Of a stretch of DNA of 32,000 nucleotides, positions 1,058 through 23,792 are shown piece after piece. Each line of letters begins with the position of its first letter. Positions within the stretch are counted from its first letter, which is position 1. Position numbers and translations under genes: made by a program. This stretch comes from Candidatus Jordarchaeales archaeon. GTDB lineage: Archaea > Asgardarchaeota > Jordiarchaeia > Jordiarchaeales > Freyrarchaeaceae. Below the pieces are notes generated by a model. It did not search any database. It was not told the DNA's origin and was given only the letters and a program-made list of their open reading frames with translations. The stretch spans positions 1,004,499 to 1,036,498 of the forward strand of contig JAWAHN010000001.1 of the NCBI GenBank assembly GCA_038889235.1, given 5' to 3'.

Positions 1058-2203
1058 CTAGAAGCATCTGTGAATTACTCCTACGCCTCCCTCTTGATAC
1101 TCTTTCTTTGTAACCCACATCTTCTGGAACGTCCTTAACGAAGCTAATATTGATCCTCCGATCCAGACACTATATTGTCTCTCGGGCGGCGCAATTATCT
1201 TTATTTCAACATTTTCTGGAACTAGCTCTGATATCTCTTTGTGCAATCTTTCCTTTAAACCTGGAAACATTGTTGAGCCGCCTGAAAGGACTATGTTAGC
1301 GTATAACTCTCTTCTCAAGTCGATGTCGCACTTCTTAATAGTCTCGACTATTGCTTCATCTAGCGGCGGTGCATCTAATCCGATAACTCCCGGGTTGAAG
1401 AAGACTTCTGGTGCTAGGAATCTCTCGGCACCAATAGTAATAGTTTCGCCATCAGGTAGTACGTATGTTTTTTCTATGCCTGAAACTTTCTCTGCAAGTT
1501 TGAGCTCCTTTTCAGGGTCCAATGCCACATAGCAGAGCTTTTCCTTAATGTCCCTGACTATTTCTCTTTCAGCTGTTGAAACGAAGCTGTAACCGCGTTG
1601 TCTTAGGAGCCTTCGCAAGTACTCAGTTATATCCCTCCCTGCAAGATCTATCCTGGTAATGGCGTGTGTTAACGCGAAACCTTCATAGATTGGAACTATG
1701 TGTGTTACTCCATCTCCCGAGTCTACCACTAGACCCGTTGTCCTTCCAGACGCATAGAGCGAGAGAACAGCTTGCATTGCAACATATATAGCCGGTGTAT
1801 TAAATGTTTCAAACATTATTTCAGCCATTTTTTCCCTGTTTTCACGCGGGTTCAGCGGCGGCTCCGTTAGTAATACAGGGTGCTCTGAAGGGTCGACTCT
1901 CAAGTCGTTGAAGAACGTGTAGTGCCAGATTTTTTCCATAGCATCCCAATCTGTAACTACACCATGCTCTATTGGGTAAACTAACCTGAGTACTCCTCGC
2001 AGGTTAAGTGCCTCCTCTCCAATGTAATATTCTCTCGTGTAGTGTTCTACGTCCGTCATTATTGACGCATACTTCGGATATCCTATACAAGTTGGCCATA
2101 CGGAACGAGGCTGATCCTCCCCTGCAAACCCATTCTTAGTTAACCCTGTTCCATTGTCTATTACTATAGGTTTCGCAGCAATCATTTCTTCTTCGCGTGC
2201 CAT
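1058..2203 (-). CDS. Asgard-type actin (eukaryote-like actin; alternative start 2242)
   Basis: Motifs are [13 protein letters not shown] (phosphate 1), [36 protein letters not shown] (phosphate 2), [27 protein letters not shown] and C-terminal HRCF. An AGGAG RBS precedes ATG 2203. Confidence 0.97.
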
Positions 2204-2389
2204 TTTCTCATATCTCCTAACATTTTTTAAAGGTCTCTTCATTCTTCCCCATTTTTCGAAAGAAATTATTGCCTTATGTTCTATTTTAATTTTTTGAATG
2301 TCATTTTTGTCAACAATATAGTTGATAACTACACAATTTTTTCTCTTTTAATGGCGATCTTCTCAAATACGAGATGTTTAGCATGCGTG

Positions 2390-19687: not shown

Positions 19688-20896
19688 CTACTCGACATGT
19701 ACTCTTAAGAGATCTACGTCGCCGGGTTCTCCCGGAATCCGCCTCTTGAGTATTTCAAGGAACTCTCTAACCGACCTTTTGATATCTTTAGACTGCGTGA
19801 TGTACCTTCCAACTATGAGTATGTGCGCTCCAGCATCTAATGCTTCGTCGGCATTTTCTGGAACAATGCCTCCTGCCACGGCAAAAAGCATTTTTTGCCC
19901 CTCAAAGGTCTTCTTAATCTCTTTTATCAGCTCCCACCTAGATCTCCTTCCGGACGACTCTGTATCGATTGCTCTGTGAATTATTACAACATCAGGGAGT
20001 TCTTTCAGCGACTTCAATTTCTCAATAGGGTCTGGGACATCCATCATATCTAGGAAAGCATAAATTCCAAGTCGTCTCGCTTCATAGATGAACTTATCAA
20101 TGGATTCCTTAGATGCGAGCCCAGAAGCAACTACTCCATCAGCAGTCTCCTCATATGCTAGGTCGACTTCTACCTGTGCAGTGTCTAAAGTTTTCAGGTC
20201 AGCTACTATAAACATGTCTGGAACTACTTCTCTAAGTTTGCCGATAACGCTTACACCATGCCTCTTTATCAGCGGAGTGCCTGCCTCGAGTATTATCATA
20301 TCACTCTTCGGTATTTCACTTACTACACGAATAGCCTGCTCCAATGACGGATTATCGAGTGCTATCTGCAAGTATGGAGGCCGCCATAGTCGAGGAACCT
20401 TAAAGCCCATTATTGGGTGCACCGCCCTATCTTTATCATACATTATCTTCTCTAGCGGCGGATATCCTTGCAAGGCTCGTCTTAAAGCAAGCTTTGTAGC
20501 ACTATAATTGTAGTGGTATATCTTCCTGTAATCCTTTGCTTCCGGGTGAACGAAAACGCTTGCTATTATCACCCATTCATCTGCCTTATCCGCTGGAATA
20601 ATCCCTTCCTCTACAGCGTCCGCTATAGCTTTAGCCACAGCAGACTGCGCTGGACCGAATATCTTGTTCGCCTGTTCCATGTTTTTAATAGTGACTTTCG
20701 GGATGATCAATACGTGCGGTTTTGGTGGTAGATTAGGTCTAATCACCCCTAGAAGCGGCGTGTGTCCCTGGGACATATGGGTTAAACCTTGGGCAAACGC
20801 TACTCCAACTGGGCCAAACTTGTCCCCTATGATTAGATCAATGTGCGCTACCTCCGCACCTTTGCCAACCAACGCCTCACCTATGTAAAACTCCAT
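19688..20896 (-). CDS. fae-hps: Bifunctional formaldehyde-activating enzyme / 3-hexulose-6-phosphate synthase
   Basis: The N-terminal Fae part has GEALVG.G.EVAHIDL and [10 protein letters not shown]. The C-terminal Hps part has [21 protein letters not shown] and AVAGGI...LIVGRYIT. Confidence 0.95.
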
Positions 20897-20927: not shown

Positions 20928-21785
20928 TCAATCTACTGATTTAAACCTTCTGAGCATGAACTTTTCTCCCTTTAGTTGTCGCATCTTTTTACTTACTAAT
21001 ATTCTTGCAACTTTTCCACTCCACTTTTCATGAGCTATGTCAACACTTTCTTCAGTTAAAATGAGATCAATATACTCGATCTGTTGCCTTACAGCTTGTT
21101 CAAGAACATCGTCTGCTATGTTATTAACTCCCTTAATTATACCATAAACTAGCAACTGTTCTAGGGGTGAACGCCAATAGTGGTAAGAATAAGAAACTTT
21201 AACTTTCCACCTATTTAGCACTTTTCTTAGAAACCTAGTATTAATGCTGTGCGTTATCACAACAGGTTCACGGTAATTCGTAAGTAAAGTTAACAGTTTC
21301 TCATAGCTTTCCCACACCTTGTTTCCCTCACTAAGATAAGCGTTAAGTAGTTGCTTCCACTCGTTTAAAAAGAGCTTACCGGTAGCTTTGCACTTAAATT
21401 CGAGAAGCAGCTGTTTTTCTGAAAGAGCAGCGCTTTCTATATGCTTTGTTACATCGTGATAACAGTACACGTCAAACTTCATTAACTTATATTTTACCTT
21501 TAACGCGTTTAAAATTGGTGAAAAAACCTTCCCTAGGTAACGAGTCGCAGGTTCACTTGCACCCGTAAGTTCCATATATTCTTTCCACAGCTCTCCCTCC
21601 TCAACTAATTCTAATAAGACGCACCGTGTGGTTTCACTCAACTCCTCTGGTAATGGAATGAAAAGAGCGTCGAACTCTTTACTCAAAATGTACTCTCCCG
21701 CACGCCTGCCCGCCTCCACGAATCTCGGGACATGGAGAAGTATCACACTTCCCATCGTGTCATCTGTTTTAAATGTACTTTTCAT
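20928..21785 (-). CDS. Hypothetical protein (~285 aa)
   Basis: A long ORF with a GAGAGGAG RBS before ATG 21785 and protein-like composition. I cannot name the family. Confidence 0.7.
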   Translation of the reverse strand: MKSTFKTDDTMGSVILLHVPRFVEAGRRAGEYILSKEFDALFIPLPEELSETTRCVLLELVEEGELWKEYMELTGASEPATRYLGKVFSPILNALKVKYKLMKFDVYCYHDVTKHIESAALSEKQLLLEFKCKATGKLFLNEWKQLLNAYLSEGNKVWESYEKLLTLLTNYREPVVITHSINTRFLRKVLNRWKVKVSYSYHYWRSPLEQLLVYGIIKGVNNIADDVLEQAVRQQIEYIDLILTEESVDIAHEKWSGKVARILVSKKMRQLKGEKFMLRRFKSVD

Positions 21786-21964
21786 ATGCTCTCTCCTCTC
21801 ACTTACCATATGTGCTCTTTTCCGCGCTTGCAAGTGTCTTTTATCTCTGGAAGGCGTGTCTCTTGGCCGCAACATTTACCAAAGGAAAAAGAGGGAAAAA
21901 GGAAATAAAAGCGTCATGGCTACATGTGTATGAATACATATTAACTTATGGTGGTGTTCCTGTT

Positions 21965-22543
21965 TTGGCTCCCGATGTAAAGAAGGTTCACAGGTTTGGC
22001 GTCGAAGACGATTTAGACGCATCCTTTCTTCATGAGAAATTTGACGAACTAGAAGAGATAACAGTTTTAGAGTTAGAAAAACTGGCTGATGTTTTACATC
22101 TCCTTTTGGATTTAGAACCTTACACATGTCCAGTAAGAGGTGTAGATACTCCTTGCATTCTATGCGAAGAGAAATGCAGCGCTGCCAATTACCAAGAGAT
22201 CGAAACTAAACTCGGAAAGGGGCGGAAAACGATCAACAGCTCCACGTTCTTTCTCGCCTTTGAGAAACATGACGAGGTTGAAAAGTTTCTAATTAGAAAG
22301 TTAGCACGGGAGTTATCCAAGAAAAAACTTAATGTAATTGACCCAGAAGAAGGGTATGATATCGGCTTTCTCTTTACACATGAAGATAGGTGGAGAATGG
22401 AAGAAATTGTATCCTTTGTGGTGAAACTGTTTGAAAAAGTGAGAGTTTTGCTGCCTGAAGCAAAGTCCCTCCTCAACTCCTGGGTGAGAAAGAAAGTAGA
22501 AGAGATGGAGCGCGAAGAAATGTTAAAGAAAGGGAAGCACTGA
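21965..22543 (+). CDS. ARPC4 (Arp2/3 complex subunit 4)-like protein
   Basis: TINS...DEVEKFLIRKLAR...PEEGYDIGFLFT...IVSFVVKLFEKV...K..LNSWVRKKVEE parallels eukaryotic ARPC4 SINS...DEIEKILCHKFMR...PVEGYDISFLIT...LVDFVIHFMEEI...K..VNARARIVAEE (recalled from memory). A GGTGGTG RBS precedes TTG 21965. Confidence 0.8.
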   Translation: MAPDVKKVHRFGVEDDLDASFLHEKFDELEEITVLELEKLADVLHLLLDLEPYTCPVRGVDTPCILCEEKCSAANYQEIETKLGKGRKTINSSTFFLAFEKHDEVEKFLIRKLARELSKKKLNVIDPEEGYDIGFLFTHEDRWRMEEIVSFVVKLFEKVRVLLPEAKSLLNSWVRKKVEEMEREEMLKKGKH

Positions 22544-22589: not shown

Positions 22590-23792
22590 TCACTCTTCTA
22601 ATTCATATTCCTCGAAGGGGATGCCTGCTCTCTCTTTTAGTGCCTTTATTCTTTCAATTACTGTACGTATCTCCCCGCGTATTTTCGAGCGCTGGACAGC
22701 ATATTCTGCTTTCTCTATAGCTCCTGCTTGATACCTCATTGTAATATATTCTAATTGTTCCCTAAGCGATTTGAGTCTGCTCTTGAGCTCCTCTATTTCC
22801 TCGAGTAAAGTTGGAGATGCTGCCTGCTCTTTTATTACCTCGACTGGTAGCTTTGTAACAATTTGTGCTCCTCCTTTCTGAGATAACATTCTCGCAGCAA
22901 ATACCCTAAACTCGTTTACGAATGCGTCGAAGCGTTTTCTCAAATTAACAACTTCCACTAGAATTTTATCCAGTTGAGGGACATACATTGTTACATCAGG
23001 TACTCCTGACACTGCTGCTCTCTCCGAAGGAAGAATTACAGGTGCTTCATGTTGTGAAGTGTCCTCTTCCTCCAACGCGGGGACTGGAAGCGAAATGCTT
23101 TGAGCTTCTTTTCTCTTCTCTTTGAGCCAATTAAAGATATTTAAGGCGAAAAGAGAGTTCTGAGCAGCATTTAATCCACCAGCAGCTCTATCCCTAAATA
23201 TCTCGTATGAACCTAAAGCTACGACTTTGCCCACTCCGAACTCAGCAACAGCGGCAACGATAGCTTCTGGCGGCTCGGCGGTTTTGCTTGCAAAAGCCAC
23301 ACCTTCTGCATTTCCGCCAACAATTTTTAGTCCGCAGCCTGCAGGGTAGCATATCTCGCTAAGTCCTTGCGTAACAGGGTGATCTGAGAAGCGCGTGACT
23401 CTTGGTATGTTTCTGCTCATGTAATTTTGCCTTTCATCAATGACTTGATTATTCTGAAAAGATATCCCAAATCTTTCAGCTATGGCGTTTAAGTTAGTTC
23501 TTAACCCCGGATCCCCTCCTGCATGACTCATGATCAAAAGTCCTCCCCCGCGGGCTACAAAATTCACTATGGCATCCACTTCCGAAGGAGTAAACTTCGA
23601 CTGATCAGGACAGGGGATTACCAGAATATCAAATTTCTCTAGCTTTTCCTTGGTCACAGGCGGCTCTACCAGTCTAATACATTGAAATCCTTCTTTCTCA
23701 AGTAATCCCTTAAGCCCACTATAATTCAGTGCTAAGCGTCCTCGCTCCTTTTGTGTTTCGTCAAAGAGGACCTTGTAATTAAAGGCGCTCAT
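22590..23792 (-). CDS. GIFT/DUF4350 (IFT52-like GATase-fold) domain protein with C-terminal coiled coil and helical hairpin
   Basis: The N-domain reads VLFDE..KE...YSGL...L...VTKEKL..FDILVIPCP..KFTPSE..AI..FV..GGGLLIM...GG...RTNLN.I..RFGI.F.NN.V. A Pro/Ala/Glu linker follows, then heptad repeats. There is no signal peptide or TM helix. Confidence 0.75.
   Translation of the reverse strand: MSAFNYKVLFDETQKERGRLALNYSGLKGLLEKEGFQCIRLVEPPVTKEKLEKFDILVIPCPDQSKFTPSEVDAIVNFVARGGGLLIMSHAGGDPGLRTNLNAIAERFGISFQNNQVIDERQNYMSRNIPRVTRFSDHPVTQGLSEICYPAGCGLKIVGGNAEGVAFASKTAEPPEAIVAAVAEFGVGKVVALGSYEIFRDRAAGGLNAAQNSLFALNIFNWLKEKRKEAQSISLPVPALEEEDTSQHEAPVILPSERAAVSGVPDVTMYVPQLDKILVEVVNLRKRFDAFVNEFRVFAARMLSQKGGAQIVTKLPVEVIKEQAASPTLLEEIEELKSRLKSLREQLEYITMRYQAGAIEKAEYAVQRSKIRGEIRTVIERIKALKERAGIPFEEYELEE

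Follow-up and report, generated by a model that had tools for sequence, protein, structure and literature searches.

An ARPC4-like gene lies on the forward strand of the window, that is, of the whole stretch of 32,000 nucleotides analysed here, which also carries the sole actin gene of the genome (Table 1). The open reading frame encodes a product of 192 amino acids and runs up to a stop codon at its 22543 end. The original prediction had placed an ARPC4-like gene at this position, and what was found there is a real gene whose start is backed by homologues. The TTG at 21965 is in frame and falls in exactly the same alignment column as the ATG start codons of the close homologues P0005 and P0006. 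Homologue lengths range from 193 to 201 amino acids. A longer formal reading frame begins with the ATG at 21773 and contains the ARPC4-like gene as its 3' part. This ATG was rejected as the start because it would create an overlap of about 100 bases with the divergent upstream gene and is unsupported by the homologues. A possible Shine-Dalgarno-like element precedes the TTG.

Table 1 Features of the window that are discussed in the text
Feature	Position	Strand	Basis
Fae fused to a HUMPS/OMP-decarboxylase-type domain	19688..20896	-	Fae, E 3e-69
Divergent upstream gene (315 aa)	20928..21875	-	
GGTGGTG, possible Shine-Dalgarno-like element	21950..21956	+	8 nt before TTG; read from sequence
ARPC4-like gene	21965..22543	+	ORF; homologue-aligned TTG start; Pfam ARPC4; fold match Z 17.7
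Acidic extension (residues 1-29) beyond the ARPC4 N-terminus	21965..22051	+	VIA alignment start, pLDDT, composition
Helix 1 (residues 34-47), counterpart of the ARPC4 N-terminal helix	22064..22105	+	DSSP; alignment from ARPC4 residue 2-3
Cys4 knuckle C55-x8-C64-x2-C67-x3-C71	22127..22177	+	Family conservation
Pfam ARPC4 core (strand 3 with INS, helix 2, PEEGYD strand, long helix)	22229..22501	+	Pfam, phmmer
Long C-terminal helix (residues 139-190)	22379..22534	+	DSSP on model
Convergent neighbour with IFT52 GIFT domain (400 aa)	22590..23792	-	Pfam, 58 bits
Actin, sole actin gene of the genome and candidate partner	1058..2242	-	Pfam Actin, E 1e-139

The frame is kept in six relatives with 68-77 % identity (alignment A1), and the closest public locus, in a genome from the same genus, is 78 % identical. 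The source DNA was found in hot-spring metagenomes, and the source genome (2.14 Mb, 8 contigs) is 95 % complete. In a metatranscriptome, a contig of 261 nt fell within the ARPC4-like gene (22084-22344) with five differences, and came from a strain that is about 98 % identical. This contig is a weak hint of transcription; RNA libraries can carry DNA. The hot-spring metatranscriptome run X8 gave no contig on the stretch, which is not evidence of silence. A 71 %-identical homologue (L004, on contig 28 of G115) was observed in a MAG publicly labelled 'Thermoproteota archaeon'. The label looks outdated, as our genome collection places G115 in the Asgard family of the window genome.

The genes next to the ARPC4-like gene were also inspected. 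The product of the convergent neighbour consists of the GIFT domain, a linker and a coiled-coil C-terminus, and RNA-library contigs of 904 and 191 nt from a close strain were located on this gene. The divergent upstream gene has no Pfam family. Its product falls in archaeal hypothetical clusters (ESM Atlas) and has a distant likeness to the ChaN/TIKI/TraB haem-binding-type fold (TM 0.47-0.50). As the ESM Atlas record begins at residue 23, the start of this gene may lie at about 21809, with a wider intergenic region. Further upstream, the window carries the Fae fusion gene. The Fae-Hps fusion is the usual archaeal form in the ribulose monophosphate pathway.

When the 192-residue product was searched with Pfam, PF05856 (ARPC4) was matched with 31.6 bits against a cut-off of 22.2 (E 1.5e-7). 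Residues 89-179 were aligned to profile positions 66-162 of 167, and the sequence match is confined to that part. The relatives P0008, P0009 and P0011 likewise pass the PF05856 cut-off. In a phmmer search of all PDB chains, the matches were 3dwl_F, 1k8k_F and 9dlx_F, all of them ARPC4 (E 5e-7 to 2.5e-6), and nothing but ARPC4 was found below an E-value of 0.1. In addition, a profile was made from the six closest sequences and searched against 1.84 billion representative proteins. It first retrieved about 27 proteins, mostly of about 150 amino acids (three are longer fusions), and then eukaryotic ARPC4 with E-values of 2e-5 to 1e-3. An ARPC4 likeness had originally been proposed from a run of motifs (INS, DEVEK.L, P.EGYDI.FL.T, V.FV and N...R). 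All of these are present in the ARPC4 alignments, and the Pfam score, being significant, bears the proposal out.

An AlphaFold2 model was built from an alignment of 27 archaeal-type sequences in which eukaryotic ones were absent. It had a mean pLDDT of 86.5 and a pTM of 0.74, and every element of the ARPC4 fold was present, in the order helix, three strands, helix, two strands and long helix. In the Foldseek search, nine ARPC4 chains ranked first (E 2e-10 to 3e-8; TM 0.72-0.76 by target) and ARPC2 came next (E 5e-3). With VIA-align, residues 30-185 of the model were superimposed on ARPC4 residues 2-168 (Z 17.7, rmsd 1.9 Å, 154 residues). ARPC2 followed at Z 7-9 and all others were below Z 5. 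In the case of the N-terminal helix, for which a parallel in ARPC4 had been suggested, the structural parallel was upheld, but the similarity in sequence was not significant (-1.2 bits). By both sequence profile and fold, the window protein is confirmed as a genuine ARPC4 homologue.

ARPC4 is one subunit of the eukaryotic seven-subunit Arp2/3 complex, which branches actin filaments, and to our knowledge it is the only Arp2/3 subunit with a clear archaeal homologue. The family is already known in Asgard archaea and the sequence finding itself is not new. Asgard homologues of 'ARP2/3 complex subunit 4' were catalogued as eukaryotic signature proteins and are uncharacterised (PMC7444086, PMC7522288), and ARPC4 is among the catalogue-matched structural clusters of Asgard archaea and eukaryotes (2026 preprint, bioRxiv 10.64898/2026.10.28.762692). 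A Cys4 knuckle, dimerisation or any assay was not described in the searchable literature, outside whose scope much of the subscription literature lies.

The acidic N-terminal extension of the original prediction was recovered, as residues 1-36 contain 11 D/E and 4 K/R. The extension has a pLDDT of 49-56, and the VIA alignment starts only at model residue 29-33. It is present in the sequences of A1 and in P0008 and L036, is restricted to families f1 and f2 of the order, and is absent from other families. This disordered tail might be a regulatory or partner-binding tail specific to the order, which is among the most speculative steps of our proposal.

A family profile was applied to 400 genomes of the phylum, and the ARPC4-like gene was found in 96 of them, almost always as a single copy. 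The distribution is patchy: the gene is near-universal in some families and absent in others, including the largest (f20, 0 of 135). Entire actin-bearing Asgard families such as f20 are without the protein, so actin systems of Asgard archaea do not depend on it in general.

Two fused forms were observed. The first, of the Odinarchaeia type (P0010, L050, L051 and L054; 377-408 amino acids), has an ATC-hydrolase/V4R-like domain before the core and a Cys/His element at the C-terminus. In the second, the core is followed by a linker and a bundle of four helices. This bundle had no Pfam match and no similarity to either neighbour of the gene in the window. Its model (pLDDT 83.7) gave the C-terminal domain of Vps28 (2j9w, 2g3k) as the best geometric match (TM 0.65-0.69, rmsd 1.8-1.9 Å, probability 0.91-0.97), with a Foldseek E-value of about 1 that is not significant. 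As a separate observation, the window's genome encodes a protein of 189 amino acids elsewhere (L055:1186-1755; G000 contig 2, 118122-118691, +). Besides an N-terminal helix and a proline-rich linker, this protein has a four-helix bundle whose homology (E 2.7e-6) is to the Vps28-tail-like domain fused to the ARPC4-like protein in another Asgard lineage. Judged from their domain composition, the fusions to non-actin modules indicate functions for which actin is not necessarily required. As a functional pointer, the bundle fusion is a weak hint. Bundles of this type were found in 193 of the 400 genomes, often in two to six copies, in frames of 250-750 amino acids and in varied architecture. The bundle was rejected as a clue to a partner because its distribution does not follow that of the ARPC4-like gene.

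We also searched for further components of an Arp2/3 complex. Pfam families PF04045, PF04062 and PF04699, which cover ARPC2, ARPC3 and ARPC5 (the remaining ARPC subunits except the WD40 protein ARPC1), had no match in the 95 %-complete genome. There is a single ARPC4-like gene and a single actin-family gene, and several other genomes with an ARPC4-like gene also have one actin. Thus, with no match to these three subunits, one actin here and a single actin in several other carriers, the protein does not appear to work inside an Arp2/3 complex. Among actin-binding proteins, profilin (PF00235) gave sub-threshold matches only and gelsolin (PF00626) gave two borderline matches in the genome.

That actin lies in the same window as the ARPC4-like gene had been pointed out previously. 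The actin gene is indeed present, but its linkage is not conserved: the two genes are 20 kb apart in the window but 0.2-1.7 Mb apart in each of six closed genomes, all from other families. The assemblies of two relatives within the family are fragmented. Linkage to actin was therefore rejected as a clue. Gene neighbourhood was rejected as well, because 16-kb regions from 20 genomes in 13 families (12 besides f1) had no neighbour common across families, and hence no conserved operon partner. The GIFT-domain gene and PolB adjoin the ARPC4-like gene only within the order, and the GIFT gene, being convergent, is not co-transcribed with it. One closed genome of 1.4 Mb (G303) had its actin match in two adjacent pieces on C1 (534630-535643 and 535657-535773, within 534630-535773). 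Such a split would be expected from a frameshift, an intron or a small insert close to the 3' end of the gene.

The missing subunits, the single actin, the unlinked actin genes of other genomes, the fusions to non-actin modules and the absence of the protein from many actin-bearing Asgard families would all fit a dimeric adaptor of the ARPC4 fold that has no actin role, an older protein-protein scaffold with which Asgard archaea would join other modules and which eukaryotes later recruited into Arp2/3. We consider this a real possibility, although a somewhat improbable one. Against it, the sole characterised relatives (ARPC4 and, more distantly, ARPC2) bind actin filaments and Arps, and conservation with eukaryotes extends to the long helix, the part in contact with actin at branch junctions. 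The Vps28-tail-like fusion, moreover, is weak evidence for such an adaptor, as the module is promiscuous and does not co-occur with the ARPC4-like gene.

The four cysteines C55, C64, C67 and C71 are located between helix 1 and strand 1. Among 27 family sequences, no exception was found for C55, C67 and C71, and C64 has a conservation of at least 90 %. Together with S92, N91 and W173, the four cysteines have the top conservation in the family (weighted entropy). The 51 loci gave 40 distinct domain sequences, of which 38 have the pattern C-x5-9-C-x2-C-x1-6-C, and the other two members are without the canonical C-x2-C spacing. The motif is absent from eukaryotic ARPC4. The original prediction had described a four-Cys cluster inserted where ARPC4 has a loop. 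The cysteines are present, conserved and plausibly metal-binding, but there is no insertion: since 156 model residues cover 166-167 residues of ARPC4, the Cys segment replaces the connector. Nor is the feature peculiar to this protein, because the replacement is family-wide.

The simplest reading of the Cys4 motif, judging by its conservation and spacing, is that it is probably a structural zinc site. The four cysteines would bind a structural metal, most likely zinc, and so stiffen a connector that eukaryotes keep as an extended loop. The same four near-invariant cysteines within 17 residues could instead hold an iron-sulfur cluster, in which case the protein would be a switch that responds to redox state or oxygen. 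The host is an anaerobic hot-spring archaeon by lineage, and the Odinarchaeia-type fused forms add a Cys-rich, sensor-like domain. However, the spacing to the first and last cysteine varies (x5-9 and x1-6), two family members do without the C-x2-C spacing, and the site is on a small surface connector, all of which are typical of structural zinc knuckles. Pfam gave no match to an Fe-S family either. We thus regard a cluster-bearing switch as quite improbable.

For residues 30-192, a homodimer was predicted on the basis of the family alignment, with two zinc ions included. The model had a median ipSAE of 0.48, compared with 0.00 for the best of three controls. At least 97 % of contacts were the same across runs, and the partner pLDDT was at least 82. 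In calibration, 20 of 30 solved homomers reached the mark, as did 1 of 23 solved single chains, counts that are only roughly valid here because of the custom alignment and the zinc riding along. Homo-oligomers had been raised as a possibility from the sequence, and the model, in passing its controls, speaks for a dimer. The predicted interface is symmetric and antiparallel. It involves residues 103-120 in helix 2 and residues 147-189 in the long helix, and its two-fold axis is at residue 170, adjoining the conserved W173. Helix positions in the interface are more conserved than other helix positions (0.49 vs 0.39; one-sided Mann-Whitney p 0.01), a difference that could come partly from ordinary helix packing.

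At the heart of the ARPC2-ARPC4 clamp are 'two long intertwined helices', and in eukaryotes mother-filament actin is contacted by the long helix of ARPC4 (PMC9295785). The predicted homodimer appears to reproduce the core of this clamp, which is a likeness and does not amount to binding. As it uses long-helix packing of the ARPC2-ARPC4 type, the pass may just as well reflect the model's memory of solved complexes.

Dimers with the same topology are known elsewhere. Class I type III secretion chaperones are dimeric, with a helix, three strands, a helix, two strands and a helix, and the chaperones SycN-YscB, VecA, STM2138, ExsC and CesT were the next structural matches after ARPC4 and ARPC2 (Z 4.0-4.7). 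A chaperone-like dimer that holds an extended client peptide is nevertheless hardly credible, as common arrangements also give scores of Z 4-5, a sequence signal is absent and ARPC4 is a far stronger match (Z 17.7).

Taken jointly, the evidence points to a stand-alone Asgard homologue of ARPC4 with a metal knuckle, which would form a clamp-like homodimer and dock on actin. We give this reading about an even chance of being correct. Two copies would pair symmetrically and in antiparallel, with helix 2 and the long C-terminal helix in contact, to form a homodimeric clamp core. The dimer may then dock on the cell's actin, binding either filament sides or two protomers, and act as an anchor or scaffold instead of belonging to a branching machine. 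This docking, like the role of the tail, is the most speculative part. A bolder form, which we think unlikely, is that the ARPC2-ARPC4 clamp descends from such a zinc-stabilised homodimer, of which the Asgard protein is the living representative. It would grip two actin protomers or a filament side alone, as an anchor or nucleation scaffold that predates Arp2 and Arp3, and the acidic tail of Jordarchaeales would regulate the grip.

At stake is the origin of Arp2/3, namely whether its clamp core existed as an actin-binding homodimer before eukaryotes. The question can conveniently be addressed with a small protein from a thermophile whose 2.1-Mb genome encodes just one cognate actin, and the family-wide Cys4 site offers a concrete and mutable handle.

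The window protein was also compared with known systems. Co-occurrence with Arp2, Arp3, ARPC2, ARPC3 and ARPC5 was not found in this genome, and a heterodimeric clamp with ARPC2 is not available to it, because the genome is without an ARPC2 gene. ARPC2 (p34-Arc, PF04045), the clamp partner of ARPC4, is the second-best structural match and has an alpha/beta module and a long pairing helix in common with the window protein. However, ARPC2 has two modules and about 300 amino acids, and the window protein has no Pfam match to it. The protein belongs to the published Asgard ARPC4 homologues, among which its acidic N-terminal extension is an addition of this order. The fused ARPC4-like proteins of other Asgard lineages have the same core and Cys knuckle, whereas the window protein has no fused domain.

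The closest likeness is to eukaryotic ARPC4 itself. It lacks the 29 acidic N-terminal residues, and its connector between helix 1 and strand 1 is replaced by the Cys4 knuckle in the window protein. It pairs with ARPC2, whereas self-pairing is predicted for the window protein, and in both cases the pairing uses, or is predicted to use, the long C-terminal helix. The motifs INS, P.EGYD.SF and K..N.R.R are common to the archaeal protein and eukaryotic ARPC4 (p20-Arc, PF05856), and chain F of the solved complexes (1K8K, 1TYQ, 3DWL, 6DEC and 6W17) has the same fold from end to end with 22-25 % identity.
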